From assembly GCA_963782055.1 (NCBI GenBank), contig CAWAIF010000003.1, positions 2,688,001 through 2,752,000 on the forward strand: a stretch of DNA of 64,000 nucleotides, written 5' to 3'. How positions within the stretch are numbered: the stretch's first letter is position 1; each line of letters starts with the position of its first letter. This document shows positions 37,516 to 54,849 of this stretch, one piece after another. The notes under the pieces were generated by a model. It did no database searches. It saw only the letters and a program-made list of their open reading frames with translations, and was not told the DNA's origin. Made by a program: the position numbers and the translations under genes. Source of the DNA: an uncultured delta proteobacterium (GTDB taxonomy: Bacteria; Myxococcota_A; Polyangia; Polyangiales; Polyangiaceae).

Positions 37516-37753
37516 GGAATGTAATCTTTAACTGGGCCATTATCGATAGCGTTACCTTCGCCATCTCCAGTGATCACGTGTCCATCCGGACTTATCCCGG
37601 CCCAATCCTTTGGTTCTGCCAAGACTCCCTCCTTGATGTTTCTTTGATGTTGTTTAGTCCATGGTGTCTGATTGATAGGCTTCGTCCCGGTCGGGCAGCC
37701 CTTCGGCTTGGCTCCCTTGGATCGTGATTGGGGCGTCTCAGCGAGCAAGCCAA
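37512..37753 (-). pseudogene. Orphan polymorphic-toxin C-terminal tip, 5'-truncated at repeat R1
   Basis: GCPTGTKPINQTPW...IKEGV...KDWAGISPDGHVITGDGEGNAIDNGP resembles RHS-type C-terminal domains; no delivery domain; begins at the repeat junction. Confidence 0.55.
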
Positions 37754-37804
37754 GCGCATAGGAAATCCTAGCGCGGTCGGGCGCGAAAGTTTACGAAATC
37801 CATC
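37754..37804 (-). repeat. oriIS-like 100-bp repeat R1 (left half only; interrupted)
   Basis: gcgcataggaaatcctagcgcggtcgggcgcgaaagtttacgaaatccatc, identical to the left half of R2. Confidence 0.9.
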
Positions 37805-39007
37805 TTGGACGAAGCCGCTGCGCGGCAGCGTGGCTCCGCATCAAGCACGCTGGCGAGCCGGGAGCCTCGCGAGCGTGTGCGCGCTGGCGAGTCCGCCTCG
37901 TAGCCCTCGCGTGCCGTGACGCGGGCGATCCTGCGGCGCGCGCCGCCCGCTCGTGGGCGCGCGCGGAGCCAAAGGAGGCCGCGATGGGTGCGAAGCGAAG
38001 ACTGCGGGACACGATGAGCGAGGACCTCGCGCTGCGAGGGATGAGCGCCAACACGATCGCCACGTACGTGGGTGCGTGAGGCGGTTCGCGCAGTACCACG
38101 GGCGGTCGCCGTGCGCGCTGGGGGCGGCGGAGATCCGTGCGTTCCTCTTGCACCTGGTGGCGGAGCGCAGGCTGGCGGCGCTGACGGTCAACGTGCACGC
38201 GGCCGCGCTGAGGTTTCTCTACGAGGTGACGCTGGAGCGGCCGGAGGCGACGCTGGGGGATGGCGCGCATGCGGGTGCCGATGCACGTGCCGGTGGTGCT
38301 GACGAGCGCGGAGGTGGCGCGGCTGCTCGCGGCGCTCACGAGCCACAAGCACCGGGCCCTGGTGATGCTCGCCTACGGGGCGGGGCTGCGCGTGAGCGAG
38401 GTGTGCAAGCTCCGGGTGGACGACATCGATCCGAAGCGGATGCTCCTGCACGTGCGGCACTCCGCCAGCCACGCCACCACGCGCCTCGAGACCGCTCGCC
38501 GCAGACTGGGTCCGCACGCGGCGCCCGCTGCGCGACCGGTGCGCCGTGTCGACGCCGCCGACCTGCTGCTGCGAATCGCGGGCATCGACCTGCACCGCTG
38601 CCCCGCTTGCCACACGCCTGCCCTCGTGCGTACCGCGCTGCCGGAGCCCCGAGCTCGCGACCCGCCGGGGGCCGCATGATCTCCCCGCGTCGTGCTCCAC
38701 TGCGCTCGCTCCACGAGTGCGGCCCAGGCCCCTGTCCATCCACGCCACGAAAACCCGGCCTCCGAGCACGCACGGCTGCCCGCTGCGCGCTCCGGGACGC
38801 CCGCGTCGAGCGCCGTCCCGCCGCCCGCTCCGCACCTCGCGCACCCGCGCCCGTGACCCACACGCCGCCAACTTCCCCATAGGGCTCCGAGGCCACCGCC
38901 TCGCCGCTGCCGCGCACCGGCTTCGTCCAACCGTCGATTTCGCGACCGCGCACCCGCGCCACGCGACCGGCGTCACGACCCGGCGCGCTCACGCAATCGA
39001 CTCTTAC
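37805..39007 (+). mobile_element. Internally deleted copy of the integrase + Y2-transposase element
   Basis: Near-identical to 40949-43469 except for a ~1.3-kb deletion joining int (cgtgcggcac) to late tnp (tccgccagcc) at a GCAC microhomology. int is frameshifted at G-runs ~38070 and ~38255. Both ends are intact. Confidence 0.9.
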
Positions 39008-39016
39008 TTATGGTAA

Positions 39017-39432
39017 ATGCCGCGCCGCATCATCGCTGGCGTGCGGTTCCTCGACGCGCGAGCCACGGTGGTCGGGCACTTCCCTGCTCGTCAGGAGGTG
39101 ATCGAGCTGGCCGCGGACGTCACCGTCTTCCTCCGGCGGCAGCTCAACCAATGGAAGAGCGCGCGAGGGTACGGGCGTCGCGTCCAGGGTCAGCAGGGTG
39201 AGCGGTGGGCGGCCGCGCTCGGCCTCTCCCGCGACGCCGACCTGTGCGACCGACTGGAGCGCTGGTGGGGGACGGGCGAGGTCGCGCTCCAGGAGGTGAC
39301 GCGGGACGGCGGCGCGGTGCTCAGCCCGGCCCGCTTCGACGAAGGCTTCGACGGTCGCTTCACCTTCCTTTGGACGACCAGCCAAGCCCAGCTCCAGCGC
39401 TACGCGCGTCAGCTCCAGCTCGATCCCGAGGC
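39017..39432 (+). other. Probable gene fragment of unknown function, ending at the 121-bp repeat
   Basis: Protein-like ORF (MPRRIIAGVRFLD...QLQLDPE) that reads into the repeat. Confidence 0.35.
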
Positions 39433-39553
39433 TGAGCCTCCCCGAAGACGAGGAGATGGTAGCATCGAGGGTGCGTACGGGGCCCGCGGGCGGCGCAACC
39501 GGACATGATGGATGCTAGCGAACCCAGATCGAGGGCCAATCTGGCTTATCCAC
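39433..39553 (+). repeat. 121-bp direct repeat, copy A
   Basis: tgagcctccccgaagacgaggagatggtagcatc...gagggccaatctggcttatccac; about 3 mismatches versus copy B. Confidence 0.9.
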
Positions 39554-39579
39554 TTCGCCAATGGTGAGGAGGTTTTCGC

Positions 39580-39972
39580 ATGGAGATCAAGGCGCTGCTC
39601 GGGGCGGAAGATCCGGGGGAGCTCGCCGAGGCGGCGATGGACCTCGCCGACGCGCTGGCGGCGCTCGCCGACGCGAAGGGCCGGCCGGGGCTCGCGCCGC
39701 CGGTGGACGTCGCGTACCGCGTGGTGCTTGCGGACGGCGCGATGAACAACGATGGCGCCCGAGCGCTCATCGATTCCGGCATCCCCGCGGAGGAGCTCCT
39801 CTCGGCGCTGCGCGAGATCGGCGCGCCGAAGATGGCCGAGATTCTCGCTGGCGCCCTGGCCGAGCCCGACGACGCCGCGGCGCTCGACCGGTGGAGCGCC
39901 TATCCGGACTACCTCGAGGGGCTGCTCGTCGACTGGGTGACCCGCCATCGCGCGGCGTTCGAGTCCGCGTAG
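39580..39972 (+). CDS. DMP19/DUF4375-like acidic protein (possible immunity protein or DNA mimic)
   Basis: GAGGAGG RBS; DGAMNNDG, ALREIGA, LEGLLVDWVTRHRAAF pattern. Confidence 0.6.
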   Translation: MEIKALLGAEDPGELAEAAMDLADALAALADAKGRPGLAPPVDVAYRVVLADGAMNNDGARALIDSGIPAEELLSALREIGAPKMAEILAGALAEPDDAAALDRWSAYPDYLEGLLVDWVTRHRAAFESA

Positions 39973-40070
39973 CGGCCCTCGCCAGCTGGAACGCGAAGGG
40001 CCAGACCGCGTCCGGTCCGGCGGGTGCGCCCCGTGCTGGGCCAGCTATGGCTCCCTGCCGCCCTGCCCCT

Positions 40071-40191
40071 TGAGCCTTCCCGAAGACGAGGAGATGGTAG
40101 CATCGAGGGTGCGCCCGGGGCCCGCGGGCGGCGCAACCGGACATGATGGATGCTAGCGAACCCAGATCGAGGGCCAATCTGGCTTATCCAC
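40071..40191 (+). repeat. 121-bp direct repeat, copy B
   Basis: tgagccttcccgaagacgaggagatggtagcatc...gagggccaatctggcttatccac. Confidence 0.9.
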
Positions 40192-40432
40192 ATCGCGTCC
40201 TTGATCTTGGTCAGCCCCCTTCTGGGCGCACCCCATCGGGGGGCAGCGGCGCGGGTCGTCAGCGCCGCCACGGCTGTCGAAGGTGCCGCGGGGCTCGGCT
40301 CCGCGGTCCTCGACCCCGGGCACCCGGCGCGGCGGAGGCCATGACGCCCGGTCCGCGGCAGTCGACGCCCGCTGGAGGCTGGACAGCCGGCGGACACCCG
40401 TGGTTTTTTCCACGCACTTCGCGAGGTGCTCC

Positions 40433-40915
40433 GTGCACAAGCTGCTTGCAATCTCCCTGGTCGCATCGCTGGCGGCGTGCTCGGGCAGCTCGACCCCGTC
40501 CGGCTCCACGGGCTCGGCCTCGACGAGCGGCTCCGGCACCACCGGCGCGAGCTCCAGCGGCTCCACCGGCACCAGCAGCACCGGCGGGAGCGGTGGCTCC
40601 ACCGGCGGCGTGCCGCCAGGGGGCAAGCGGATCTTCCTCACCTCGTCGACCTACGAGGGCGGCGCGCTGGGCGGGGTCAGCGGCGCGGACCAGAAGTGCA
40701 CCCTCTCGGCCCAGGCCGTGGGCCTGAGCGGCACCTGGATCGCGCTCGTCTCCGGACTGGACCGCATCAGCGACGTCGGCCCCTGGTACCTGCTCGACGG
40801 CACCAAAGTCTTCAACAACAAGGCCGGGCTCTCGACCACGCCGTTCGCGGTGATCAGCATCGACGAGCGCGGCGGCGCGCACGCGGGCGACGAGCAGGCG
40901 CATAGGAAATCCTAG
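40433..40915 (+). pseudogene. DUF1554-like lipoprotein, 3'-truncated at repeat R2
   Basis: LAAC lipobox, Ser/Gly/Thr linker, KRIFLTS...GGVSGADQKC...GPWYLLDG...IDERG; the frame runs into the repeat and stops before the usual WTG half of the domain. Confidence 0.75.
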
Positions 40916-40948
40916 CGCGGTCGGGCGCGAAAGTTTACGAAATCCATC
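40898..40948 (-). repeat. oriIS-like 100-bp repeat R2, left half
   Basis: Together with 43470-43518 it reconstitutes the uninterrupted R3 sequence. Confidence 0.92.
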
Positions 40949-41128
40949 TTGGACGAAGCCGCTGCGCGGCAGCGTGGCTCCGCATCAAGCTCGCTCGCGA
41001 CCCGGGAGCCCCGCGAGCCGTGTGCGCGCTGACGAGCCCGCCTCGTAGCCCTCGCGTGCCGTGATGCGGGCGATCCTGCGGCGCGCGCCGCCCGCTCGTG
41101 GGCGCGCGCGGAGCCGAAGGAGGCCGCG

Positions 41129-41974
41129 ATGGGTGCGAAGCGAAGACTGCGGGACACGATGAGCGAGGACCTCGCGCTGCGAGGGATGAGCGCCAACACG
41201 ATCGCCACGTACGTGGGGTGCGTGCGGCGGTTCGCGCAGTACCACGGGCGGTCGCCGTGCGCGCTGGGGGCGGCGGAGATCCGGACGTTCCTTTTGCACC
41301 TGGTGGCGGAGCGCAGGCTGGCGGCGCTGACGGTCAACGTGCACGCGGCCGCGCTGAGGTTTCTCTACGAGGTGACGCTGGAGCGGCCGGAGGCGACGCT
41401 GGGGATGGCGCGCATGCGGGTGCCGATGCACGTGCCGGTGGTGCTGACGAGCGCGGAGGTGGCGCGGCTGCTCGCGTCGCTCACGAGCCACAAGCACCGG
41501 GCCCTGGTGATGCTCGCCTACGGGGCGGGGCTGCGCGTGAGCGAGGTGTGCAAGCTCCGGGTGGACGACATCGATCCGAAGCGGATGCTCCTGCACGTGC
41601 GGCACACCAAGCGCGGGCGTGAGCGCTACGTGATGCTCAGCGCGAGGCTGCTGGCGACGCTGCGCGCGTACTGGAAGGCGTCACGACCCGCAGGACCGCA
41701 ACTGTTTCCGGGGCGCGTGCCCGGGACGCTCCTCACGCGCGCGGCCGTCCACCGGGCGATCCTCAAGGCGGCGCGGCGCGCGGGCATCACCCGGCGCGTG
41801 TCGCCGCACACGCTGCGCCACAGCTTCGCCACGCACCTGCTCGACGCAGGGACCGACCTTCGCACGTTGCAGGTCTTGCTCGGGCACGCGTCGCTCAGGA
41901 GCACGATGGCCTACCTGCACGTGAGCACCGCCCGCGTGCAGTCGATTCAGAGCCCCCTCGACGCGCTGCCCTGA
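41129..41974 (+). CDS. Tyrosine recombinase (N-terminal SAM-like + XerD-like catalytic domain)
   Basis: GLRVSE (R), TKRGRER (K), HTLRHSFATH (HxxR), LLGH, STMAY (Y); AAGGAGG RBS. Confidence 0.95.
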   Translation: MGAKRRLRDTMSEDLALRGMSANTIATYVGCVRRFAQYHGRSPCALGAAEIRTFLLHLVAERRLAALTVNVHAAALRFLYEVTLERPEATLGMARMRVPMHVPVVLTSAEVARLLASLTSHKHRALVMLAYGAGLRVSEVCKLRVDDIDPKRMLLHVRHTKRGRERYVMLSARLLATLRAYWKASRPAGPQLFPGRVPGTLLTRAAVHRAILKAARRAGITRRVSPHTLRHSFATHLLDAGTDLRTLQVLLGHASLRSTMAYLHVSTARVQSIQSPLDALP

Positions 41975-41980
41975 GCCCCG

Positions 41981-43141
41981 ATGCACCCGTCGTGTGCGCC
42001 CGCGCGCACGCGCGCGGCGCCCATCGAGCTCGCGGACGTGGTGCGCGCCCACGGCGAGGCCTTCGCCGGCGGCCGCGTGCTGCGTCCCGAGGAGCGGTCG
42101 GCGCTGCGGGCGATCGAGCGATGCCGGACCGCCGCGCTGGGCGGACATCTGGACGTGTGCACCGCGTGCGGGCTCGAGCGACCGTCGTACAACTCGTGCC
42201 GCAACCGGCACTGTCCCAAGTGCCAGTCGCTCGCGCAGGCGCGGTGGGTCGCCACGCGGCTCGAGCGCATTCTGCCCGTGCACTACTTCCACGTCGTCTT
42301 CACGCTCCCCGCCGAGCTGCGCGCCGTCGCGCGGCGCTCGCGCGCGCGGGTCTTCGACATGCTCTTCGCGAGCGCGGCCGACACGCTGGCCACCCTCGCG
42401 CGGGATCCGAAGTGGCTCGGCGCCGAGCTCGGCGTCACGATGGTCCTGCACACCTGGACGCGCGCGCTGCTCTTCCACCCCCACGTGCACGCCATCGTCA
42501 CCGGCGGCGGACTCACCGGCGACGCCGCGCGCTGGGTGCGCGCGCGCCGTCGCTTCCTCTTCCCCGTGCGCGTGATGGGCGCGCTCTTTCGCGGCAAGAT
42601 GCTCGCCGCTCTCGAGCGCGCCCACGCGCGCGGCCTCGTCGACCTGGGCGGCGTCGACCTGCTGGCGCTCCGACGCAAGGCCTGGGTCGTCTACGCCAAG
42701 CGACCCTTTGGCGGCCCCGCTCAGGTCATCCGCTACCTCGGTCGCTACACGCACCGCGTCGGCATCTCCAACCACCGCTTCGTCTCGATGGGCGAGCGCG
42801 GCGTCACCTTCCGCACCAGAGACGGCAAGTCGGTCACCGTCCCGGCCGAGGAGCTGCTCGCGCGCTTCGTCCAGCACGTGCTGCCGCGCGGCTTCGTCAA
42901 GATCCGCCACTACGGCCTGCACTCCGCCAGCCACGCCACCACGCGCCTCGAGACCGCACGCCGCAGACTGGGTCCGCACGCGGCGCCCGCTGCGCGACCG
43001 GTGCGCCGTGCCGACGCCGCCGACCTGCTGCTGCGAATCGCGGGCATCGACCTGCGCCGCTGCCCCGCTTGCCACACGCCTGCCCTCGTGCGCACCGCGC
43101 TGCCGGAGCCCCGAGCTCGCGACCCGCCGGGGGCCGCATGA
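41981..43141 (+). CDS. IS91-family Y2 HUH transposase with N-terminal Zn finger
   Basis: CRTAALGG..C..C...YNSCRNRHCPKC; HPHVH HUH motif; YLGRYTH (Y-x3-Y); GFVKIRHYG. Confidence 0.95.
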   Translation: MHPSCAPARTRAAPIELADVVRAHGEAFAGGRVLRPEERSALRAIERCRTAALGGHLDVCTACGLERPSYNSCRNRHCPKCQSLAQARWVATRLERILPVHYFHVVFTLPAELRAVARRSRARVFDMLFASAADTLATLARDPKWLGAELGVTMVLHTWTRALLFHPHVHAIVTGGGLTGDAARWVRARRRFLFPVRVMGALFRGKMLAALERAHARGLVDLGGVDLLALRRKAWVVYAKRPFGGPAQVIRYLGRYTHRVGISNHRFVSMGERGVTFRTRDGKSVTVPAEELLARFVQHVLPRGFVKIRHYGLHSASHATTRLETARRRLGPHAAPAARPVRRADAADLLLRIAGIDLRRCPACHTPALVRTALPEPRARDPPGAA

Positions 43142-43386
43142 TCTCCCCGCGTCGTGTTCCACTGCGCTCGCTCCACGAGTGCGGCGCAGGCCCCTGTCCA
43201 TCCGCGCCACGAAAACCCGCCCTCCGAGCACGCACGGCTGCCCGCTGCGCGCTCCGGGACGCCCGCGTCGAGCGCCGTCCCGCCGCCCGCTCCGCACCTC
43301 GCGCACCCGCACACGTGACCCACACGCCGCCAACTTCCCCATAGGGCTCCGAGGCCACCGCCTCGCCGCTGCCGCGCACCGGCTTC

Positions 43387-43475
43387 GTCCAACCGTCGAT
43401 TTCGCGACCGCGCACCCGCGCCACGCGACCGCCGCCGCGACCCGGCGCGCTCACGCAATCGACTCTTACTTATGC
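43387..43475 (+). other. attC-like imperfect hairpin recombination site
   Basis: GTCCAAC (RYYYAAC), then gtcgatttcgcgaccgcgc ... gcgcgctcacgcaatcgac (inverted pair), then C|TTATGC. Same structure at 38925-39013. Confidence 0.6.
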
Positions 43476-43518
43476 GAAGTGGGGCCGTCCGGTGTCACTG
43501 GAAGGACGGACCAGGGTG
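43470..43518 (-). repeat. oriIS-like 100-bp repeat R2, right half
   Basis: ttatgcgaagtggggccgtccggtgtcactggaaggacggaccagggtg. Confidence 0.92.
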
Positions 43519-44672
43519 GCCTGATCGGTGGAGATGTGGAGCAGGTTGCCGCCGAGGAGGAGCGGGTGGGCGCTCACGGGAGGCACGACGCCCCCCTGGA
43601 CCATCGGCGGGTACCAGGAGACCGGCTCCGTCTTGCTCAACCCCCTGGTCGACACGTCCGGCTCCGGCCAGCCGCGGCACTGCAAGCCGCTGTGGCAGAC
43701 CCCGACCGGTGTCACCTTCGTGGAGTCCTCGCCCCACTTGCCGACCACGTCGTAGGTGGTGGTCGGATCGTCGGCGTCGGCGAAGGTGGAGGCGGCGTCG
43801 CCCAGGTCGCTGAGCTGCCAGGTGGCGCCGTTGAGCCAGTCGGCGCCGTTGTCCTGCGTGCCGATGAGCAGCCCACCGGGCGCGCCGGGCACGGTGGCGA
43901 TCGACTGGAGCTGGGTGATCTGCAGCCCGTACTGCGGCTGGTCGTCCCAGACGTCGGCGTTCAGATCGCCGACGAAGAACCCTCCGTCGTTGGCGTCGAA
44001 GCCGAGGAGGTTGCTCCCGTCGACGAACACGTAAAGATCGTGGTGGTCGGGGTGAAGCGCAGCGGCGGTGTTGGAGCCCATCTCGTTCCAGTCCACGCCC
44101 GAGTTGTCCGAGTAACCCAGCATCATCCCGGTGAACCAGAGCTTGGTCGCGTCGGTCGGATGCACGATCAGCTTGTGGCCATACGTGGAGTAGGTGCTGG
44201 GGGCGAGATCCAGGTCTGGCGGCGATTGGACGAACGCGCGCTGTTGCGTCCAGCTCTGCCCGCTGTCGGTGGACTTGTAGATCGCCGGCTGGCACCACCA
44301 GTTGCCCGTGGCCGTGAACCCGCTGGGGCACTGGGCGAGCGCCGCGTAGAGCGTGGAGGTCGTGCTCGGCGCGATGGCGATCTCCGCCCAGTCGGCGGCG
44401 TACTGGCCGCCCGTGAGCAGGGACGCGTCGATACCCGTGTTGATCGGCGTCCAGTTCGCGCCGCCGTCGGTGGACTTGTAGAACCCGGCGCTCTGCAGGC
44501 CCGCGTAGAGGGTCTGCGGATTGCCCGGATCCATCCGGAGCTCGGTCCCCTTGACGCCGGGCTGCCAGAGGACGCGCGACCAGCTCTGCCCGCTGTCGGT
44601 CGATTTGTAGATGCCGTAGCCGCCCGGGGGCGTGGTCTCCACGGTCCCATCGGATGCGCCCGTGACCTGCAT
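43519..44672 (-). pseudogene. Internal fragment of a BNR/Asp-box beta-propeller protein (VPS10/GH74-like)
   Basis: Repeated YKSTDxGxxW boxes, HPDHH, NDGG, GTQDNG; cut mid Asp-box (HISTDQA|) at R2; no signal peptide. Confidence 0.75.
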
Positions 44673-44747
44673 CGGGGGGAGGGGGGCCGGACGGTATGCG
44701 CATCCGGGGGGCGGATGGCGAGGGGGCGAGGAGGCCCTCGAAGGTGG

Positions 44748-44784
44748 CCGCCAATATTGGCGGTGCGGGTCGCCAATATTGGCG
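44748..44784. promoter_or_regulatory. Twin perfect palindromes CGCCAATATTGGCG, centres 22 bp apart
   Basis: ccgccaatattggcgg at 44748-44763 and cgccaatattggcg at 44771-44784, followed by GGGGACAG x3. Confidence 0.55.
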
Positions 44785-44867
44785 GGGGACAGGGAAGGGG
44801 ACAGAGGGGACAGGCCGCCAGGCGACGGCGGCCGCGGCATACCGCGTGACTCTCCCTGGCGCGGTGC

Positions 44868-46271
44868 GTGCAGCTCGGGGGCGTGGCCGGCGCGCCGTTC
44901 GTCTACGAGAGGCGACACCCCGAGGGCACCACGCTCTACGCGGTGGTGCGCGACAACGTCGAGACCCTCTACGCCGCGGTCGCCGAGAGCGGCCTCACGC
45001 TGCCCGCCTTCGTGCGCCAGGAGCTGGAGGGCTACCTGGACTGCGGCCTTCTCTGCCGGGGCTTCGCGCACCTCAAGTGCGAGGAGTGCGGCGAGCGGCG
45101 CGTTGTCGCCTTCGCGTGCAAGGGCCGGGGATTCTGCCCGTCGTGCATGGGGCGGCGCATGGCGCAGACGGCGGCCAACCTCATGGAGAGCGTGCTGCCG
45201 GAGGCCCCGCTGCGGCAGTGGGTGCTCACCATGCCGCACGCCATCCGGCATCGCCTCGCGTACAACGCCCCGCTGCTCGGCAAGGTGACGCGCGCCTTCC
45301 TCGCGACGGTGGTTGCATTCTACAAGAAGCGGGCGGGCGCGAGCGGCTGCGTCGCCGTCGTGCAGCGCACCTCGAGCGATCTCAAGCTCAACCCGCACGT
45401 GCACGCGGTGTTCCTGGACGGCGGGTACGTCGAGGTGGACGGCGAGCCGCGCTTCCGCGCCCTCGGCCACCTGCGAGGTAGCGAGGTCGCCGAGGTGCTC
45501 GCGAGGGCGCGCCGCCGCATCGAGCGGCTGCTCGCCCGCGCCCAGGAGCGTGCCGACGACGAGGACGTGCAGCCGATGCTCACCAGCGTGCGCGGCCACC
45601 CGCCCGCCGGCCCCGCGCTCCGCCGCGGCGCGACCTTCGGGGTGGGCTCCTCGCGCGCCGAGCTCTGCGCCCAGGACGAGGGCTTCAACCTGCACGCCGC
45701 CACCCGCGCCGGCGCCCTCGACGCCGCCGGGCGCGAGGCCCTCTTGCGCTACATCCTGCGTCCCCCCGTCGCCCAGGAGCGCATCGTCGCGGGACCGGAC
45801 AACCTGGTGCGCATCGCGCTCAAGAAGCCCTTCTCCGACGGCACCGTCGCCGTCGACATGGACCCCCTCTCGCTCCTCTTACGCCTCTGCGCCGCCGTCC
45901 CCGCGCCGCGTTTTCATACTGTCCGCTACGCCGGCGTGCTCGCGTCCGCCAGCAAGGTGCGCCCCAAGATCGTCCGCCGTCCACCCGACCCGGCGACGGC
46001 GACAGAGCACGACGACAAGCCGAAGCGCTCGCGCTACTGGCCGTGGGCGGAGCTCATGGCCCGGACGTTCGCGGTGGACGTGCAGAGGTGCCCGAAGTGC
46101 GAGGGCCGCATGAAGCTCGTGGCGATGGTGCAGGAGCCGCGCGGGATCAAGAGGTTCCTCGAGGGGCTCGGCGAGCCGCACGAGGTCCCGCCGCGCGCAC
46201 CGGCCCGCGCTCCTCCCTATTATCGCAGCGCCGTCATCCGCCGGATCGCCGGCGCCATCGTCGCCGCCTGA
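44868..46271 (+). CDS. IS91/ISCR-like rolling-circle transposase, apparently intact
   Basis: YERRHPEGT, CGLLCRGF..C..C...FACKGRGFCPSC, RQWVLT, NPHVH HUH motif, GFNLHA, LLRYILRP, RFHTVRYAG. Confidence 0.92.
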   Translation: MQLGGVAGAPFVYERRHPEGTTLYAVVRDNVETLYAAVAESGLTLPAFVRQELEGYLDCGLLCRGFAHLKCEECGERRVVAFACKGRGFCPSCMGRRMAQTAANLMESVLPEAPLRQWVLTMPHAIRHRLAYNAPLLGKVTRAFLATVVAFYKKRAGASGCVAVVQRTSSDLKLNPHVHAVFLDGGYVEVDGEPRFRALGHLRGSEVAEVLARARRRIERLLARAQERADDEDVQPMLTSVRGHPPAGPALRRGATFGVGSSRAELCAQDEGFNLHAATRAGALDAAGREALLRYILRPPVAQERIVAGPDNLVRIALKKPFSDGTVAVDMDPLSLLLRLCAAVPAPRFHTVRYAGVLASASKVRPKIVRRPPDPATATEHDDKPKRSRYWPWAELMARTFAVDVQRCPKCEGRMKLVAMVQEPRGIKRFLEGLGEPHEVPPRAPARAPPYYRSAVIRRIAGAIVAA

Positions 46272-46440
46272 CGCACTGCCCGGGCAGGCACCGGTGCGCG
46301 CGGGGACCGAAAATCAGCCGGCAAATGGCACCATCGAACCGCGGCGACCACGATGGGGACGTTCGGGCGCAGCAACATCACGCCGCCAGGACCGCCCCGA
46401 AGGGGCGCGGCTCGTGGAAAACCGCGCTTGAATCCCGTAC

Positions 46441-46505
46441 GCTCTCGCTGCTCGCAGGCACCGGCGTGCCTCGGTCTCGTCCTCGATCTTCCGTGCGCTC
46501 GCCAC
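46441..46505 (-). pseudogene. 5' stub of a small IS66-type OrfA-like gene cut by the IS91-like ori end
   Basis: GGAGGTGA RBS, GTG start, ASARKIEDETEARRCLRAARA, then the element junction. Confidence 0.4.
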
Positions 46506-46995
46506 TGGTCACCTCCGCGTCGTGCCCGAGCCTGCACGGCGCGCACGCGAAGATCATCCCGGCGTCGCTGATGGGTCACGCGCAGACCCACCGGCTCGGT
46601 GGCGAGCACGACCGACGCCGCGCTGCGATGTCGCGCACGCGGGCCCTCAGCTCCAGCTCGAAGCGCTCGCCCGCGCCGCTGGGATGCCTCGCGATCATGT
46701 GGCGCACGGCTGCCGCCAACGGGATCCGGATGGGCTTCGCCGAGCAAGGGTCGCCGGCTACGTCAGGACGGGGCAGCGCGAGACCTTGCCCTCAGCAGGG
46801 TCAGTGCTCGATGTCGCTGTGCTTCGCCCTGCCGGAGAAGAGCTGCACCCTTCGACAATCGCCGCGCAGAACATCACATCGTTGTAGATCAACAGGAGCC
46901 TTCCGCGTGACGACCCAGTCGGACCGCAACACCGCGCAGAACGTGAGTCAATTGCGGAGCGATTCCCAGCACCCGACGCCATGGGAGACCGCGGT

Positions 46996-48090
46996 TCAGT
47001 CACCGCCAAACGGCGGGTGTGACGCGACCCAGATGTCATACTTTCCGCCGCTCCCCGAGCGCTGACTGGTGAAGTAGAGGCTGCAGGAGTCCGGCGAGAT
47101 CCATCCTGGGATGTCCACACCCTGGTTGGAGGCAAGCTCCGTGACGACGGCGGCGTTCGCGAACAGGGAGCTCGTCGTGGCACGGTTCGCTACCCAGACG
47201 TCGCCTCCTTGATAGTAGTACAGCGTCAGCCCGTCGCCCGTCACCACGGGATGCGGGACATCCGCGACGCCCGACACGAACACTTGCACCGGCTTGGAGC
47301 ATGTCCCCTTGCCAGTGCAGTCCGCCTCGAAGAGAGGCAAGTCAGCGTTGTTGCCCTGCATGGTCAAGTACAACTTACTACCGTCCTCGGTCACATATGG
47401 CCACCGATGGAAGACGTTCGGCTGGCTGACGCCTGTCACCACCGACGGGGTGCCGAATGGCATCGCGGTGCTCGTGCGCTGGCTCACGAAGATGTCGAAG
47501 AATGACGCAGCGTCGAAGTCGTTCGACTCGAAGTACATCGTGAGCCCATCCGCCGTAACAGCCGGGGCGTCGTCTATGAGGGAGCCGTTGACGTTGCCGA
47601 CAGGCGCGACGTTGCCGAAGGCATCGCTCCTTGTCGCGCGGGTGGCCTGGTAGATGTCCACGCTCTGGTTGGCGTTCGCGCCGCGCGCGAAGTAGATCGT
47701 CAGCTCGTCGGGGCTGAGGGAGCCGACCAGCTCGTAGTCCGCCGTGTTGATGTTCCCGCCCAGCGGCGTCGGTGGCATGAAGGGCTTGCCCAGATCGCAC
47801 GGCGGCTGGCCCGAGTCGGTCGGCGCGGCGTGGTCACTTCCGTCCCCACTGGCGTCGAGGTCTGCATCGACCCCCGCGTCGAGGCCCGAGCAGTCGCATG
47901 CCGAGTATGCCGTCCCCGCCGCGTTGCAGACCTGGTACCCGGTGCAGCTCCCGGCGCCGACGCAACTGACCGACTGGTTCGGGATGCATGCCGGGGACGA
48001 CGACACGGGGGGATCGCCTCCGCCGCACTGGAACGCGAGGGCCGCGCCGACCGCCGCGGCGGTGAATAGGACAAGGTACTGTCTCGACAT
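46996..48090 (-). CDS. Exported Cys-rich protein with PD40/WD40-like propeller repeats
   Basis: Signal peptide; repeated LSPDELTIYF / VTADGLTMYF / ISPDSCSLYF...YDIWVA blades. Confidence 0.75.
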   Translation of the reverse strand: MSRQYLVLFTAAAVGAALAFQCGGGDPPVSSSPACIPNQSVSCVGAGSCTGYQVCNAAGTAYSACDCSGLDAGVDADLDASGDGSDHAAPTDSGQPPCDLGKPFMPPTPLGGNINTADYELVGSLSPDELTIYFARGANANQSVDIYQATRATRSDAFGNVAPVGNVNGSLIDDAPAVTADGLTMYFESNDFDAASFFDIFVSQRTSTAMPFGTPSVVTGVSQPNVFHRWPYVTEDGSKLYLTMQGNNADLPLFEADCTGKGTCSKPVQVFVSGVADVPHPVVTGDGLTLYYYQGGDVWVANRATTSSLFANAAVVTELASNQGVDIPGWISPDSCSLYFTSQRSGSGGKYDIWVASHPPFGGD

Positions 48091-48461
48091 GATGCCCTCC
48101 ATCGACCGGCCGCGATGATGGCTCGTCGCCACAACAACACAGAGCACGATCCCACTCGTGGCGCAAGGCGCGGGCCTGCGCTGCCGGCTGCCGGGGACCT
48201 GGTCGTTCCCGGTCCGGCAGCGTTCTCATGGCTGGAGGCGCGCCACCAAGGCCTCCCCACTGACCGCGACCGCGCGCGTGACGGTGCCGGACGGCAAGGT
48301 CATCGTGTCGGCGCGTGTCCGCGCAGCATCCGACCACCACGGAGTCCGGCCACGTGGGGAACGCAAGCCTCAGAAGATGTTCGCGCTGCTCTGCGACGAG
48401 CCGGAGCCGAAGCTCGCCAAGTTCTTCCCACCGGAATCGAACTGCGCGTCGCCTCACACCG

Positions 48462-48980
48462 TTAACGTTGAGTCTCACACGCGCGCGTGCAGGCATTGTG
48501 CACGGCATCGGCTCCGTCAAGGCAGCGTTGCAGAGCGCCTCCGCCATTCGCACACCACGCCCGTCGGCAGGTCCGACGAACCGTGCGAATGCACGTGTTG
48601 CGATCAGCGTTGTCCGCGGCAACGTCGGCTCTACAGTCCTCGAGAATCTGGGGTAGGTCTCCAAGGCACACATTCTCGCAGAACGCACGCGCCGCGAAAC
48701 CACGGCACACTACATGACATTTTTGCGTACGCTCGGTAGCGACGCTCGTACAACTCCCCACATCTTCGGGCGAACCGCATACGGCGTCACCGACCCGGCA
48801 GTATGCGTCGCAGGCGGTACACTCCATGCTCCTGACGAGCACCGGGCGTGCGCAGGCGTCGAGGCAACCAGCGCGACGCTTCCGCGCCACCAGCGCGTCC
48901 CGCTCGGCCATCGGCCTGCAGCCCCATAGACCGAGGGCGACGACGATAAGCAGCGCCGGAAAGGAGGTGACGCGACGCAT
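48462..48980 (-). CDS. Cys-rich putative lipoprotein
   Basis: LWGC lipobox; many CxxxC motifs; directly downstream of the Sel1 gene. Confidence 0.5.
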   Translation of the reverse strand: MRRVTSFPALLIVVALGLWGCRPMAERDALVARKRRAGCLDACARPVLVRSMECTACDAYCRVGDAVCGSPEDVGSCTSVATERTQKCHVVCRGFAARAFCENVCLGDLPQILEDCRADVAADNADRNTCIRTVRRTCRRAWCANGGGALQRCLDGADAVHNACTRACETQR

Positions 48981-49007
48981 CCCAGTTAGCCGCGACATCA
49001 TCATGCG

Positions 49008-50459
49008 TCATGGATCGGTGTTGTCCGTGGCGCGCCGGCACCCGATCGTGAGCCCTTGATCACACGCCTTCGCATACAGCCGTTGAGCAGCTACCGCATC
49101 CGGTCGCGTTCCGACGCCGACCGCCGTGAGCCGCGCCAAAGTCAAGCACGCAGTCGACTCGCCCTCATTGCAGGCCAGATCGTCAAATGATACCGCGATG
49201 CTGGCGTCTCGTGAAGTTCCGATGCCAGCTTCGTAGACGCGGCCCACGTTGGCGCAAGCTTGCCCGAGTCCCTCCTGGCACGCCTTGATGTAGAGCTCTA
49301 CGGCGCGTGCAGCGAACCCGCATCCTGGTGTCCTCTCGTAGACTTGCGCCAAGTCGTTGCAGCCTCCCGCTCCGTCGCGGCCGCCATTCAAGCAGGCTCG
49401 TTTGTAGAGGCGAAGCGCCGTTGCCTCATCCCGCTCGACGCCGAACCCAACTTGGTAGAGCTGCGCAAGGTCCTCGCATCCTACCGGATCGTCATGAGCG
49501 CACGCGTGTCGATATAGCTCCGCGGCGCGGACTGGATTGAAGCTCACCGTAATGCCATGCTGGTAGGCAACGCCCAGGTTGACGCAGGCGCTCTCACCGC
49601 CCCCATGACCACACGCTCGCCGGTATAACTTGACTGCGCGCGCCGTGTCGACGGGTACACCGCGGCCGCTGTCATACAGCCACCCTAGATTGCCACATCC
49701 AACCATGTCACCCCCCGCGCATCCTCGCCAATAGCTCGTCGCCGCGCGAGCGTAATCCTGGATACCACCGCGCCCGCGTTCGAAGAGGGCGCCCAGGTTG
49801 CTGCAGGCGCGAGCCAGACCCCTGCCGCAAAGCGAATCGTAGAGGAGTGCCGCTTGCGGCACATCGCGACTGTCATCGTCGTAGAGCCACGCGAGTTGGA
49901 GGCAGGCCTCGACGTCGCCGGCGTTGCATGTAGCCTGCTGGATGGTGATGGCGTGATCAACGTCTCGCGGGACACCAAGCCCCCCCGCATAATCAATTCC
50001 CAAACGCCTACATCCAACGATCTGTCCCCCGTAGCAAGCACGTTGATTGAGGCGCGCGGCGCGTTTGAGATCGGTGCTCACACCAATGCCGTTCGCGCAG
50101 AGCCACCCCAGGTCCAGACAGCCTTCGGCGTCGCCAAGCTGGCACCCCCGCTCGTCGAGTTCGGCCGCCTGCTTATCGTCTCGACTGACGACAATACCTT
50201 GTAGATAAAGCGATCCCGCCGCCGTACAACTCCCTGCGACGCCGCGGGAGCATTCCAACTGGAGAATGGTGAGGGAAGGGGCGCGCGGGCCGCGCGCCGC
50301 GGTGCTAGCAGTTCCCCTGCAGCATCCAGACGCATCGGGGTTCTCGCCGGACCGACAGAGCGAGCTACATGTCACCGCCTGTCCCTGAGCGGCTGAAGCA
50401 CCGAGCAACGGAAGGAGAAATGCCAGGGGCCAAAGGGGAGGGGAACAGCGCATTCTCAC
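49008..50459 (-). CDS. Sel1-like repeat exported protein
   Basis: About 10 repeats of GCxxLGxLYxxGxGVxxDxxxAxxLYxxAC; signal peptide. Confidence 0.88.
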   Translation of the reverse strand: MRMRCSPPLWPLAFLLPLLGASAAQGQAVTCSSLCRSGENPDASGCCRGTASTAARGPRAPSLTILQLECSRGVAGSCTAAGSLYLQGIVVSRDDKQAAELDERGCQLGDAEGCLDLGWLCANGIGVSTDLKRAARLNQRACYGGQIVGCRRLGIDYAGGLGVPRDVDHAITIQQATCNAGDVEACLQLAWLYDDDSRDVPQAALLYDSLCGRGLARACSNLGALFERGRGGIQDYARAATSYWRGCAGGDMVGCGNLGWLYDSGRGVPVDTARAVKLYRRACGHGGGESACVNLGVAYQHGITVSFNPVRAAELYRHACAHDDPVGCEDLAQLYQVGFGVERDEATALRLYKRACLNGGRDGAGGCNDLAQVYERTPGCGFAARAVELYIKACQEGLGQACANVGRVYEAGIGTSRDASIAVSFDDLACNEGESTACLTLARLTAVGVGTRPDAVAAQRLYAKACDQGLTIGCRRATDNTDP

Positions 50460-50675
50460 ATGATAGCTCAGGCGCGCTCACGGGCAAAGGGCGTCCGGTG
50501 GCCTCCGTAGAACTCGTTAGGCTCCCAGTCGCGGTTGACACCCGCTCCAGTCGGAGCCCACGGAAGGCTGCAGGCTCCGCCCGCACGCAGATGTCGGCAG
50601 ATGTTCACTGCTGTCGCACCGGGCGGCCTCGCGAAGGGGGTGCGTGGTGGCGGGGCGGGCCACTCGAACGCTCGA

Positions 50676-50775
50676 GCGCATAGGAAATCCTAGCGCGGTC
50701 GGGCGCGAAAGTTTACGGAATCCATCTTATGCGAAGTGGGGCCGTCCGGTGTCACTAGAAGGACGGACCAGGGTG
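50676..50775 (-). repeat. oriIS-like 100-bp repeat R3 (uninterrupted, empty target site)
   Basis: gcgcataggaaatcctagcgcggtcgggcgcgaaagtttacggaatccatcttatgcgaagtggggccgtccggtgtcactagaaggacggaccagggtg. Confidence 0.93.
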
Positions 50776-50906
50776 GGTCCCTGGACACAGACACACGACG
50801 CGATCTCCCGAGCGTTTGTCAATGCTATTGACATGAGAAACCGCGCAGAATCCGCGGCCAAACGTCCCTGGAAACCGACACCGCGTCATGGACAACGAAG
50901 CGTGCG

Positions 50907-51470: not shown

Positions 51471-51475
51471 TCCGC

Positions 51476-53139
51476 TTACCTCTTCTTCTTCCGCCGGCGT
51501 CCGCCCGTCTTCTGGCGCCCGCCGTCATACCCAGTCTTGGCATGCGTTTTGCGATCCACAAGCTGAAGCGTTCGCCCGTCCTGGTGATGGTGCCACGTCA
51601 GGCCGGTGATCCTGGCTTCTTCGTTCTCGATGTCGTCCAGTTGCTGCTTCGTAAATCGCCGACGCTTCCGAGGGTCCTTCTCTAGGGCCTTCTTCAGATC
51701 GCGCGTGGCAAATTTCATCTGCGAGTCATCGGAAACAGATGGATTGCACATACGCTTCGGAAGCTTCTTGTTGTGAAGAGAATCGAATACAGGGTTTCCA
51801 GTCTTGTCGAACCGAACACCCGTCTTCTTGTGTCGCTTGCCGGCCATTTTCATCCGTGCAAGACCGAACGGATCGATGTCATGCGTCGGAGATCCGTCGA
51901 ACCGGAAGGCGTTCGAGTCACCATCTAGACCGAGCGGATCGGGACTCAGCCACCGCATTGTGTCTGGGTCCCAGTATCTATGCCGGACGTATTCAAGTCC
52001 TTCTTCGCAGTCGATGTAGTGCCCCTGAAGGCCGAAACTGAGCCCGTCAGACGCCTTCGTGCCACCCCAGACCGAAAGGTCGTCGCGCTCCAACACTTGG
52101 CCGGACGAGTGGACACCTCCCGTGACCGTCGCCACTGGGTCCTTCAAGTGCTGCACCCAGCGGCCATCGACGCGCTCGGCAACGGGCTCGATTCCGTCGT
52201 CCTCGAAGAGGTATGCTCGTTCGTCGACGATCTCGTCGCCGTTTTCCACCGCCCTTCGCCGCACTTCGTGTGCTAGCGCATCGCCGTCCCACACGAAGCG
52301 CGTGGTTGTCCCGAACACGCGGTCGCCCTCGGTTTCGGCCACTCGCTTTTCTATCCGTCGGGCGAACGGGTCGTACGAAAACTCGACATGCTTCCCATCC
52401 GGTGTGTCCACTTTCTGCAGCAGCCCCGCACCGTTCCACCCATACTGCCACACGCGCTCACCGCTCTCGGTGATTTCGCGCTTGCAAGAGAGCCGACCGT
52501 CACCGTCCCACTCGTATTGCGTGTTCCCCTTCTGCAGCAGTCGGTTGCCTCGGCCATAGCGGCGTTGTGGATCCTTGTCCCCGGCTTCGTAGATGTTGCC
52601 GGCCGGGTCGTACCGGAATACCTCTTCTCGTGCCTTGGCCGGGACCGAAGCCAGCAATTGCCCGACCGGGTCGTATCGGTACTCGGTCTTTCCCCGCCGT
52701 AGATCGTTCTTCTCAATCAGCTCTCCGTCCAGGTCGTACTGGTACGTGGTGTAGGAAGTAACGCCTTCGGGCATGCCCCCAACCCACTCGGGCTCGTCGG
52801 GTCCGGCGGATCGATGCTTTGCGGGAGAACGGACAACGCGTTGGGCAAGACGCCCCATGCGGTCGAAGCCGCTCTCCAGCATGCCTCCGCCCGGCAGGCG
52901 ACGTTGGACCTCGCGGGACAAGATATCGTTGACGTGGTCGATCTGATGGTTCCCGTCGAGCAAGGTACGGACTCGCGCGCCCATGGCATCGCGCTGGACA
53001 CGCTCGGTGTGACCAAGGCTGGTCTCACGGTAGCTGCGCTCGCCTGCAGGTTCATACGTGACGGCGACCCATTGGTCCGTGCCCGCGACGTTCTGGCTCT
53101 CACGGACGATGCGGCCCAACGCGTCGCGTTCGAAGCGGA
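51476..53139 (-). pseudogene. 5'-truncated RHS protein with C-terminal WHH (HNH/EndoVII) nuclease domain
   Basis: YD repeats, RHS core (QGHYID.EEGLEY.RHRYWDP...WLSPDPLGL..DPFGL), TWHHHQD..LQLV...H; the frame begins abruptly at R4. Confidence 0.88.
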
Positions 53140-53239
53140 GCGCATAGGAAATGCTAGCGCGGTCGGGCGCGAAAGTTTACGAAATCCATCTCATGCGAAG
53201 TGGGGCCGTCCGGTGTCACTGGAAGGACGGACCAGGGTG
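53140..53239 (-). repeat. oriIS-like 100-bp repeat R4, native position 38 bp downstream of the IS91-like transposase
   Basis: Same sequence as R3 with a few substitutions (aatgctagc, catctcatgcg). The minus strand ends ...TTTCCTATGC, resembling IS91/ISCR oriIS. Confidence 0.92.
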
Positions 53240-53277
53240 AGCACGCGCTAGGCGGACGGGCGCGCTGCCGCGCGTGG

Positions 53278-54786
53278 TCAGGCGGCGGGGGGGGCGTCTG
53301 CGGCGAGGTCGAGGAGGTCGGTCGGATCGCGGGCGCGGGCAGGTGCGGGGGCTTCGGCGGGGAGGTCGAGAGCGCGGAGGATGCGGACCACGGCGGCGTC
53401 GTCGGTGATGACGGCGAGGGGACGGAGGCGGCCCCCGCAGGTCGGGCACTGGAGCACGTCGATCTCGAAGGTGCGGCGGAGCAGGCGCGGCCAGTCGATG
53501 CGGGATGTCGCTGCGTAGAGAAGGCCGCGGCGAAGGCGCTCCCAGTGGCCCACGGCGACGACGTTGGGTGCGAGACGGCGCACCTGGAGGTCTGCGGCGG
53601 CCGCGGGTGCGGCGGTCTCGGGCGCGGGTGGCGGGACTGGGAGGGGGAGGGCGAGCTGGCCCGCGGGCGGCGCGCTCGTGGTGCTGGCCGCCCCCGCGGG
53701 ATCGCGGCGCACGGGGTCGGGCCTCTCTGCCGCATGTGTGGTGTCGCGATGCGCCCGCCTCTCGATGGGCTGCCCGGGTTTCGCGGGGACGAGGGGGCGC
53801 GAAGGACGCGGAGGCCCGCAGGACGGGGCGGACGGCTCACGCGGCCTGGGGACCACGAGCTTTCGCCACGACAATCGGGGGGCGAGGACACCGTGGTAGC
53901 GGACAAGTGGGTAGCGCGGCGGCGGGACGAGCGCGGCGACGCGGGCGAGGAGCTCCACCGGAGTGAAGATCATGTGCTTCGCCTTGCCCGCGCGCGGCTG
54001 CTTGACGCGGTAGGCGACGCGGCCGTCGCGCAGGAGGCGTAGGCGCGAGAGGGCGAGCGCGGGGCGCAGGGCGTAGCGGCAGAGGCGCTCGCGGGCGAGA
54101 TCGTCCCGGACGCGGACGCCGGCGTGGAGGTTGAAGCCGGTGTCCTCCACCGCGCGGTGAGCCATGGCGGGGGCGGCTGCGTCGTCGTCGTCGTCGCCGC
54201 CGGGGTCGATCGCGAGCTTCAGCACCTTCGGGCGCTGCATCGCGAGAGCCACGCAGGCGTCGAGGGCGCTCGGCTCGACGTCGAGGTCCACCGGATCCTC
54301 GGAGAGGTGACCGTGGCGGCGGAGCCACGCGATGGCGCGACGGCTGACGGCGGTGACGAGCTGCTGCAGCTCGGCGCGGGTGGGCGCCGGCAACGGCACG
54401 AAGCCGAGGGCGCCGCTGGCCGCGTCCTCGAAGCCGACGGCGCGGGCGCGCCGGCGGTGGCTGGCGAAGATGGCGTCGGCGAAGATGCGCGCGAGCGCGC
54501 GCAGCACCACAGGGTCGAAGGCGGCGAGGCGGCGGAGCTCGTACGGCAGCGAGAGGACGTACTGGCGGAGGGGGACGTCCGGGAGCACGCGGTCGACCAG
54601 GTGGGCGGCGGTGTTCGCCATGCGACGGCCGGCGCAGCTCGGGCAGACGCTGCGGCCCTGCAGGAGAAGGCGACGAGCAGATCGTGGCCGCAGGTGTCGC
54701 ACCGGGCGCGGAGGAAGCCGTGGCGGAAGACGCCGCACCTCCACCCTTGGGGCGGCCGGGTGGCCCCGGAGAGCCAGGCAGGACAC
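53278..54786 (-). pseudogene. Decayed IS91/ISCR-like transposase
   Basis: CGVFRHGF..RC..CG....VAFSC | frameshift | GRSVCPSC..RMANTAA..RQYVLS, GFNLHA, RLCRYALRP, VRYHGVLAP. The HUH segment and most of the N-terminus are missing. Confidence 0.88.
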
Positions 54787-54849
54787 CGGGACGGCTCGCC
54801 CGGTACCTTCGACCTCGGCGCCCCCGCCCAGGTGCTAAGGTGTCCCCCG

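Follow-up and report, generated by a model that had tools for sequence, protein, structure and literature searches.

We analyzed a 64,000-nt stretch of bacterial DNA (the window; C3:2688001-2752000), which lies in the 7.0-Mb contig of a 7.58-Mb genome assembled in three contigs. The window contains a decayed copy of an insertion sequence (IS) named here element A, and a 100-nt module of this element, named O, recurs in the DNA beside it. We found that A is an ISCR-like element of a known kind, whose ori module multiplies into unusually large one-directional arrays framing foreign DNA. Co-oriented copies of O extend from the ori side of A, become more degenerate with distance from it and are separated by unrelated segments. 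The same layout was observed at two other sites of the genome, in two genomes of the same genus and beside homologous transposase genes in several phyla.

The O copies of the window were located by repeat search and direct sequence reading, and the copy at 50676-50775 served as the reference. O starts GCGCATAGG and finishes CCAGGGTG. There are four copies in the window, each on the + strand:

37754..37806, + strand, R1: O positions 1-53 alone, the outer (ori) half
40898..40950, + strand, left part of R2: O positions 1-53
43472..43518, + strand, right part of R2: O positions 54-100
50676..50775, + strand, R3: a whole, solo O unit
53140..53239, + strand, R4: a whole O, the oriIS-end module still attached to the transposase gene; the sequence runs on as ...GGGTGAGCACG

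The outer boundary (GCGCATAGG...) was identical in all four copies, and the inner boundary (...CCAGGGTG) was identical in the three copies that possess a right half. An earlier note on this DNA had reported a 100-bp repeat in four co-oriented copies with a common ori-side boundary and a common inner boundary, and these observations were borne out. It had also described two copies as half and split. They are indeed so, but their cause had been missed. R2 is split because another element, IS-B (described below), inserted between O positions 53 and 54. At gathering thresholds, no Rfam family was found over window positions 36000-56000. Single-sequence DNA folds of O gave a z of about -3.2, and the fold varied with the context.

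R4 is joined to the A gene, which runs on the opposite strand:

53240..54741, - strand: decayed body of element A; the likeness to the intact copies ends at 54741 and the terIS end is lost
53278-54786, - strand: open reading frame (ORF) of the A gene, IS91/ISCR-like, decayed

The last O copy had been taken for the downstream end of an IS91/ISCR-like gene. It is joined to such a gene, but the gene is decayed. Compared with P0003, one of the intact copies, it lacks a 33-aa stretch holding the HUH (HFH) motif and has a truncated N-terminus that is not in frame. Without the HFH segment, the window copy is inactive. Two intact 573-aa A genes are present elsewhere in the genome, and each terminates a larger O array. 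O and the A gene form one conserved block at three sites (98% over 1,276 nt, BLAST), and the two intact element A copies match each other over 1,969 bp. O is the oriIS-end module of element A. In the whole element, of ~1.97 kb, O is followed by the oppositely oriented gene of the 573-aa HUH transposase and by a ter-side stretch of ~265 bp. Its ends are unlike, as O lies downstream of the gene and the ter-side end of both intact copies is unrelated to O. When a simple insertion of O was reconstructed, the overlap was at most 1 nt, and no target duplication was found.

By Pfam, A belongs to the IS91 superfamily. Intact P0003 scored above the cut-offs of both Y2_Tnp (97.8 bits, cut-off 20.9) and Zn_Tnp_IS91 (59.8 bits, cut-off 26.3). 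The window copy gave 72.3 bits over a partial Y2_Tnp profile and 19.1 bits for Zn_Tnp_IS91, which is under the cut-off. Among the NCBIfam families, ISCR clade Ia (NF052416) scored best and is thus the nearest, yet its 274.8 bits are far under the cut-off of 925; the IS91 equivalog NF033538 was also under its cut-off (99.7 bits, cut-off 125). The HFH motif is present in P0003 and five homologues, and RY..RP in all aligned sequences. The RYALRP stretch of P0003 has a single Tyr. We take these HUH and Tyr residues to be the catalytic ones. ISCR enzymes are described as having one tyrosine. The CTTG/GTTC tetranucleotide that accompanies oriIS in IS91 proper was looked for in the O left flanks on the transferred strand, and no such consensus was found. 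On another contig, near its end, a segment (C2 550325-554204) contains degenerate O-like modules and ~320 nt of the 3' end of an A gene at ~69% identity. This resemblance suggests an older, diverged relative of element A on another replicon.

We built a profile of O from 19 full copies and scanned the genome with BLAST and the profile. The profile gave 65 hits in the 7.58-Mb genome, which holds about 45 ori modules and two intact transposase genes. All of the 19 uninterrupted full-length O copies fall in three arrays, each terminating at O joined to A:

The window, array 1: four O units
C3 4.4115-4.487 Mb, array 2
C3 5.177-5.2653 Mb, array 3

The arrays ending at the two intact A copies extend over about 72 and 88 kb. 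In all three arrays (3/3), the ter side of A is free of O, and the same was observed in two contigs of same-genus genomes (G006:C7 and G001:C10). The orientation is that of the A-linked O in 4/4 copies of array 1, 14/16 of array 2 and 13/13 of array 3. The spacers consist of unique sequence of 0.3-12 kb, and there is one spacer-less O-O tandem at C3 4433279-4433478.

The copies are graded along the arrays. Close to A, the O units are intact and frequently identical. The units farther away bear IS-B or other ISs, and those at the far ends are fragmentary (19-79 bits). The profile bits per position drop with the distance from A, with a Spearman rho of -0.79 in array 2 (n = 25) and -0.84 in array 3 (n = 17). 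Arrays 2 and 3 run in opposite directions on a single GC-skew slope; therefore, replication-strand bias was dropped as a cause of the co-orientation, although the cumulative GC skew is weak and so is this inference.

Exact O was searched for in 30 relatives, and only short, diverged matches were found. This form of O is thus specific to the genome among those searched. Similarly, an exact 28-nt core of O had no matches in metagenome contigs. Genomes of the same genus carry A homologues with their own versions of O. In G006, contig C7 has four co-oriented modules, at 131, 2829, 4027 and 6391, and then a full-length A homologue on the opposite strand, which is the same architecture as in the window. 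In G001, there are several co-oriented clusters and also one solo copy 1.6 kb beyond an A-linked copy. When the O versions were aligned, the solo copies of three species of the genus stopped at one homologous position, whereas the A-linked copies run on with GAGCACG/GAACACG. As this end point is common to the solos of three species, the inner boundary is a conserved feature and not a random deletion point.

A wider survey was done by scanning genome contigs for A homologues, and 80 loci were kept. According to the record titles, they belong to Myxococcota, Terriglobia, Bdellovibrionales, Planctomycetales and others. Among the 33 loci with the C-terminus of the gene and at least 600 bp downstream of it, 16 bear at least one further copy of the segment just after the gene. 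The repeated segment is ~93-212 nt long, mostly ~110 nt. In a stricter set, limited to the 26 loci in which each flank measures at least 600 bp, we compared the 450 nt after the gene (ori side) with the 450 nt before the gene (ter side) as a control. The ori-side segment recurs in 12 of the 26 loci and the ter-side segment in one (binomial P = 6e-5, given the flank lengths). The extra copies of the post-gene segment in this set were 16 downstream and co-oriented, two downstream and inverted, and two upstream. The earlier note had proposed to look downstream of homologous transposases for tandem ori-cargo-ori arrays in which the cargo varies and the inner boundary does not. Such arrays, co-oriented, did recur: three in this genome, others in two same-genus genomes, and repeated segments in 12 of the 26 loci from several phyla.

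At one Terriglobia locus (L095), the solo copies have a common outer end and two classes of inner boundary, which make them 93-96 nt or 162 nt long. One spacer of this locus ends in a glycoside hydrolase gene truncated at the repeat. In the 13 loci whose ori modules were aligned, an outer end starting with G-[C/A]-G-N-N-[T/A/C]-A-G-[G/T] is retained, and inner ends frequently have the sequence ...TTTG(A) or ...GTG(A).

The junctions of O were compared by matching the flanks with BLAST to uninterrupted homologues. On the right (inner) side, the native sequence begins with G in all eight junctions that have an uninterrupted homologue, and with GC in seven of them. Across all O copies, the first base of the right flank is G in 26/26. 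On the left side, 28 of 31 flanks have a purine as the base next to O, and the native sequence past the breakpoint begins with G in only two of ten. Simple insertion followed by shuffling would make the two G figures alike. Thus, the difference between 8/8 and 2/10 disfavors plain insertion of a miniature inverted-repeat transposable element (MITE). The native continuations past the left breakpoints also differ from the actual right flanks. The claim that O is not a simple MITE insertion is therefore supported, as the flanks are non-contiguous and the left and right junctions are of different types. The right junction resembles a target site, and the left one resembles an end point of another kind. 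One base more (GGGTGA) is present in four solo copies and in the A-linked copies. Because this base is shared, the solos look cut from A-linked sequence at either of two adjacent positions. In one case, a left O flank from array 2 runs on without a break into a right O flank from array 3, and the two are the separated halves of a single old insertion. Across 19 O junctions, we found no convincing read-through ORF.

The cassette next to R3 gave further evidence on how the junctions arose:

46656..50675, no strand assigned: cassette X, with PD40 and Sel1-repeat genes; GC 63-70%

Cassette X has three copies in the genome, which are 99.3-100% identical and show four different junctions to O units. 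One copy in array 3 lies between two O units. The other copy in array 3 begins 150 nt further in, right after O, and its right end continues natively where the other two copies meet O. The inner boundary of O is thus joined to X at two sites 150 nt apart, both just before GCTCGA. The outer boundary is joined to X at two sites 23 nt apart, as seen in the window copy and the first array-3 copy.

We favor, with modest confidence, the interpretation that the arrays were built by rolling-circle units, composed of O and read-through DNA, that inserted before resident O copies. A solo O would be a transposase-less mini-element made by rolling-circle displacement beginning at the outer O boundary. Displacement would stop early, ~100 nt in, at a conserved internal stop (...GGGTG or ...GGGTGA) just past a GC-rich hairpin. 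If the stop is missed, displacement would continue into the DNA to the right of a solo O as far as the next cut site, and would yield a unit of O and read-through cargo that ends after a purine. Both the mini-elements and these larger units would integrate 5' of G(C), for which the best site would be the outer boundary of a resident O, beginning GCGC. Units entering at this boundary of resident copies again and again, mostly near the master copy, would be stacked head to tail into a one-sided array on the ori side, in which the youngest units adjoin A and the older ones lie farther out, riddled with ISs and degenerate. The nick sites, the circular intermediates, the insertion at O boundaries and the activity of A in trans are what we infer in this model. 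It would explain why the boundaries are constant, why the O units lie on one side in one orientation and are graded, how the tandem and the duplicated cargo arose, and why the two junctions differ. The model builds on behavior known from IS91-family elements.

A reversed polarity of capture, with cargo accumulating on the ori side, had been suggested for this locus. However, every cassette is found next to the inner end of the orphan ori that precedes it on the left, in the ter-ward direction, which is the classical one for read-through, and no reversed polarity is needed. New units seem to come in at the outer boundaries of ori copies already present, and this would place the array on the ori side of the master copy.

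Several observations weigh against this model of insertion before resident O copies. Gene conversion keeping the A-proximal copies uniform could be another source of the age gradient. In the survey, several loci came from one metagenome-assembled genome (MAG) and are thus not independent, and the repeat detection was tuned on the present case. The ori modules of 13 loci, from divergent families, aligned poorly and gave a consensus fold with no predicted pairs; therefore, the role of the hairpin lacks covariation support. The donors needed for the X units (O at each inner site, with the native left flank) were not found in the genome. The junction motif (a purine, then G-C) is weak and unlike the CTTG/GTTC/CTCG listed for IS91, IS801 and IS1294 in the excerpt consulted of PMC13181058, and the nick positions are ambiguous by 1 nt. 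The preference for the O boundary as a target is drawn from one tandem and from indirect logic. Finally, no circles, joints or population variants were seen in low-depth short-read contigs. The read data were Logan short contigs at ~1-4x, in which one soil run held 35% of the sampled query words and two more runs of the study almost none. The joints listed in these contigs had sides of 20-25 nt, as is typical of cross-matches, and the pieces break at repeats.

It is also conceivable, but rather unlikely, that O is a MITE-like mini-transposon that hopped into a pre-existing island of foreign genes. Recombination and deletions between direct repeats would then account for the arrays, and no cargo would have been moved by O. 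O is a precise unit with two defined ends, and one ancestral simple insertion can be rebuilt from flanks that are now in separate arrays. Exchange is plausible because the arrays are rich in ISs and arrays 2 and 3 are mutually inverted. In IS801, most fragments in finished genomes were attributed to reorganizations and not to one-ended transposition (Bardaji et al., excerpt of PMC3189936). However, the left flanks would then remain halves of simple insertions and should show native G as often as the right flanks (8/8), and only 2/10 do so. The restriction of copies to the ori side in 5/5 arrays with an A gene would be unexplained, and so would the downstream bias in the 26 loci (18 downstream vs two upstream) and the different end points of the three near-identical X copies. 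The ends of O are not inverted repeats. We found neither terminal inverted repeats nor a target duplication in the O copies, and their flanks are not contiguous once O is removed.

The segments framed by O in the window are unrelated to one another in content. Besides cassette X, they comprise the following features:

39010..40897, no strand assigned: cassette between R1 and R2, with a DMP19-like ORF at 39580-39972 and a weak DUF1554-like ORF running into R2
43519..46655, no strand assigned: left part of the cassette between R2 and R3, with IS-C and an overlapping Sortilin/BNR-like ORF on the minus strand
44868-46271, + strand: IS-C, a third IS91/ISCR-like gene, 467 aa; Y2_Tnp 76.8 bits, Zn_Tnp_IS91 62.2 bits
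50776..53139, - strand: A-proximal cassette; GC 58-63%
51476-53119, - strand: RHS fragment with RHS repeats and a Colicin-DNase/WHH nuclease tip, N-terminally cut
50907-51470, - strand: 187-aa ORF of no family, after the RHS fragment

The RHS ORF begins 20 nt from the A-linked O (R4) and points away from it. Among the genes that had been described as cut at the junctions, RHS at R4 is well supported. The DUF1554 match is weak (E = 0.0012), and the BNR ORF at R2 overlaps the IS91-like gene on the other strand. The 187-aa ORF is possibly an immunity gene for the RHS tip. IS-C is ~35% identical to A, and elsewhere in the genome only fragments of it were found. The GC content of the two cassettes nearest to A is 58-66%, compared with 71.6% for the genome. 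Beyond A, the window continues with ordinary genes, namely a Ser/Thr kinase with TPR repeats and a pseudouridine synthase-methyltransferase.

Across the arrays, the cargo includes a fragment of a kdp operon that is about 80% identical to a second kdp locus of the genome, parts of type I restriction-modification systems, a D12-class adenine methyltransferase, a SocA/Panacea antitoxin, RHS fragments and a kinase. The arrays also contain IS66 elements, group II intron reverse transcriptases and many ORFs without a family. The array ORFs were chosen as greedy longest ORFs, which sometimes picked the antisense frame; thus, many of those without a family are not real genes. A 340-bp segment at C3 4411589-4411928, which has the A-linked O of array 2 on one side and an inverted O on the other, is 100% identical to C2 3479-3818. 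At the former site the outer boundaries of both O copies face each other, and on C2 the sequence continues on both sides. At C3 5244669-5253582, there are three tandem units of ~3 kb, which are 86-96% alike and each have a ~620-aa ORF lacking a Pfam family. Pieces related to these units abut O boundaries at 4420849, 4437719 and 5264897.

Given such cargo, the arrays might be a dedicated HUH cassette platform, in which the enzyme cuts at one O and ends at the next, circles of O and a cassette are re-integrated site-specifically at O, and a store of toxin, immunity and defence genes is maintained. We regard this as doubtful. The layout does resemble that of integrons and of clusters of attC sites lacking integron-integrases (CALINs), with a single enzyme gene at the array end, co-oriented ~100-nt sites between variable cassettes and newer units nearer to the enzyme. 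The RHS toxin tips, the restriction-modification parts and the SocA/Panacea antitoxin would suit such a platform, one cassette is common to different arrays and the layout recurs across phyla. However, many cassettes are gene fragments or other ISs, the A gene of the window is dead, and there is no sign of selection for host benefit. A promoter scan of window positions 50500-53400 did not find a sigma-70-like promoter in O. X meets O at four points, which indicates breakage at O boundaries and in the cargo and not fixed-site exchange. Unlike in integrons and CALINs, the enzyme at the array end is an HUH nuclease and not the tyrosine recombinase IntI, and the only tyrosine recombinase lies inside IS-B. 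The cassettes, of 0.3-12 kb, are often gene fragments or ISs, and the joints are at the repeat ends and not inside the repeats. There are no attI/attC sites, although no dedicated search for attC folding was made. The arrays are also unlike CRISPR arrays, as the spacers measure 0-12 kb and cas domains were absent among the 146 array ORFs scanned. The circles, the integron-like function and the CRISPR-like record that the earlier note had suggested were not shown by anything in the analysis.

The elements at the center of O require a separate description:

40951..43471, + strand: full-length IS-B, 2,521 bp, inserted between O positions 53 and 54 of R2
41129-41974: tyrosine recombinase gene of IS-B; Phage_integrase, 137 bits
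41981-43141: IS91-family transposase gene of IS-B; Y2_Tnp 167.7 bits, Zn_Tnp_IS91 103.7 bits (Pfam)
37807..39009, + strand: IS-B remnant at R1, in which an internal deletion joins ~658 to ~1969 of the full element
C3 4441423-4447009, 5201829-5204146, 5216049-5218369, 5221444-5223771, 5238389-5240908, 5977250-5979765, 6184032-6186553, 6197399-6199920 and 6328091-6330254, and fragments: further IS-B copies

The IS-B transposase scored 389.7 bits against NCBIfam transpos_IS91 (NF033538), above the cut-off of 125. The best NCBIfam match of its 281-aa recombinase was the integron-integrase subfamily TIGR02249, with 198.9 bits under a cut-off of 265. The right end of the R1 remnant abuts unrelated, non-O DNA. 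IS-B has ~14 copies or remnants in the genome, every one joined to O at 53/54 and none elsewhere, and both of its ends resemble the O sequence flanking this site. Thus, IS-B looks like a transposon specialized on the ori module of another rolling-circle transposon. The O units bearing IS-B lie in the older, middle stretches of the arrays.

We also considered whether O was a deletion derivative of two IS-B ends. This was rejected because O is joined to A in three species without IS-B, because IS-B has ends of its own, and because another element, IS-E, occupies the same O site at C3 4450610-4452124. IS-E is 1,515 bp long and has >12 copies genome-wide. The O parts flanking it there overlap by 9 nt (O positions 50-58). 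At C3 5212702-5216048, O positions 1-51 and the left end of IS-B are separated by a segment of ~1.9 kb, of which other copies are present at 2272360-2274252 and 6186554-6187897.

As every IS-B copy is joined to O at 53/54 and its ends resemble O around this site, the IS-B tyrosine recombinase, and not the HUH enzyme, might use O as an attachment site and shuffle or build the arrays. Its best match to the integron-integrase subfamily would fit this role, but the score is under the family cut-off. The cassette boundaries are at the ends of O and not at 53/54, and the IS-B-bearing O units are in the older, middle parts of the arrays. Arrays also exist without such an element, in G006 (C7) and at most surveyed loci. 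Therefore, we consider a role of the IS-B recombinase in building the arrays very unlikely. That the repeats are false joins of the assembly is hardly credible: the genome does come from a metagenome and the short-read contigs of the one matching run break at repeats, but the window lies within a 7.0-Mb contig, the 0.3-12 kb spacers are unique, the O copies vary by point changes and carry nested ISs, and the same layout is found in independent MAGs of other species and phyla.

A bolder interpretation, which goes further than insertion before resident O copies and which we put forward only tentatively, is that an ISCR-like HUH transposase and its ~100-nt ori module are a polar DNA-accretion system with a wide distribution in environmental bacteria. 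The enzyme would cut its own ori at the outer boundary and insert there single-stranded units of ori and captured DNA, so that new material would always enter beside the enzyme gene. The array might then preserve the order in which foreign DNA (toxin tips, immunity and defence genes) was captured, as an HUH analogue of integron or CRISPR-leader acquisition, and IS-B would parasitize the ori module.

Parts of this arrangement are already known, as judged from excerpts of the articles cited here. Of the transposition events of IS801, 26% yielded miniature ori-end fragments, which were 229, 360 or 679 nt long and made by early termination, and IS801 also mobilized adjacent DNA (PMC3189936). IS91 shows 1-10% one-ended transposition and forms single-stranded circles (PMC13181058). 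ISCR1 has variable DNA on the oriIS side, and as of 2018 no ISCR transposition had been shown experimentally, according to the excerpt of PMC6218425. In ISCR28, a remnant with a second oriIS was found "sandwiching" a captured gene (Yuan et al. 2024, as cited in PMC12772301). Helitrons capture gene fragments by bypass of the 3' terminator hairpin (PMC4778049). The earlier impression that the arrangement had not been described thus has to be qualified, since ori-side variable DNA (PMC6218425), mini ori fragments (PMC3189936) and the ISCR28 sandwich (PMC12772301) are in print. We did not find large polar arrays of orphan ori modules beside a master copy in the literature, which is weak evidence as most subscription journals were outside the search.

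Like IS801 and IS91, element A has a rolling-circle HUH transposase, a start at the ori end downstream of the gene and no target duplication. In both cases early stops would give precise ori-end mini-elements that are mobile without the transposase gene, and missed stops would take adjacent DNA. The several fragment lengths of IS801 may be compared with the two solo lengths at the Terriglobia locus. The differences are that the mini-elements here are ~100 nt with a boundary conserved across species, that they form one-sided co-oriented arrays of up to ~20 units beside the master copy, that the junction motif is not CTTG/GTTC, and that the transposase is ISCR-like and under the NCBIfam IS91 cut-off (99.7 < 125). 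With ISCR elements, A shares its best NCBIfam match (ISCR_clade_Ia) and the single tyrosine, here in RYALRP. The variable DNA on the oriIS side of ISCR1 (PMC6218425) and the extra oriIS sandwiching a gene in ISCR28 (PMC12772301), both as given in the excerpts, are further likenesses. However, the A score of 274.8 bits is far under the 925 required for clade Ia, A is hosted by environmental Myxococcota and members of other phyla, and resistance genes are not involved. There are dozens of orphan ori modules here, not one extra copy, and polarity and an age gradient are documented. The likeness to Helitrons is in the capture of gene fragments by hairpin bypass (excerpt of PMC4778049) and in the non-autonomous derivatives, which are more numerous than autonomous copies. 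In contrast, Helitrons are eukaryotic and have a Rep-helicase fusion, which is absent in A, whereas the hosts here are bacteria and it is the origin end that multiplies, not the terminator end.

ISCR elements are regarded as major gene-capture vehicles. Why their variable DNA lies on the ori side is an unsettled question, and the arrays are a natural data set bearing on it, with two intact transposase genes, about 45 ori modules, traceable junctions, duplicated cargo, clear polarity and representatives in several phyla. The rules of initiation, termination and target choice are readable from such arrays. Annotation pipelines could take advantage of orphan ori modules, as these mark where the pieces of mosaic islands are joined. 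Insertion at the boundary of a resident ori, if true, would explain the ordered stacking of foreign genes beside rolling-circle elements. The main interest of these arrays is as a natural system for ISCR mechanics, and their polarity hints at ordered accretion beside the transposase gene.

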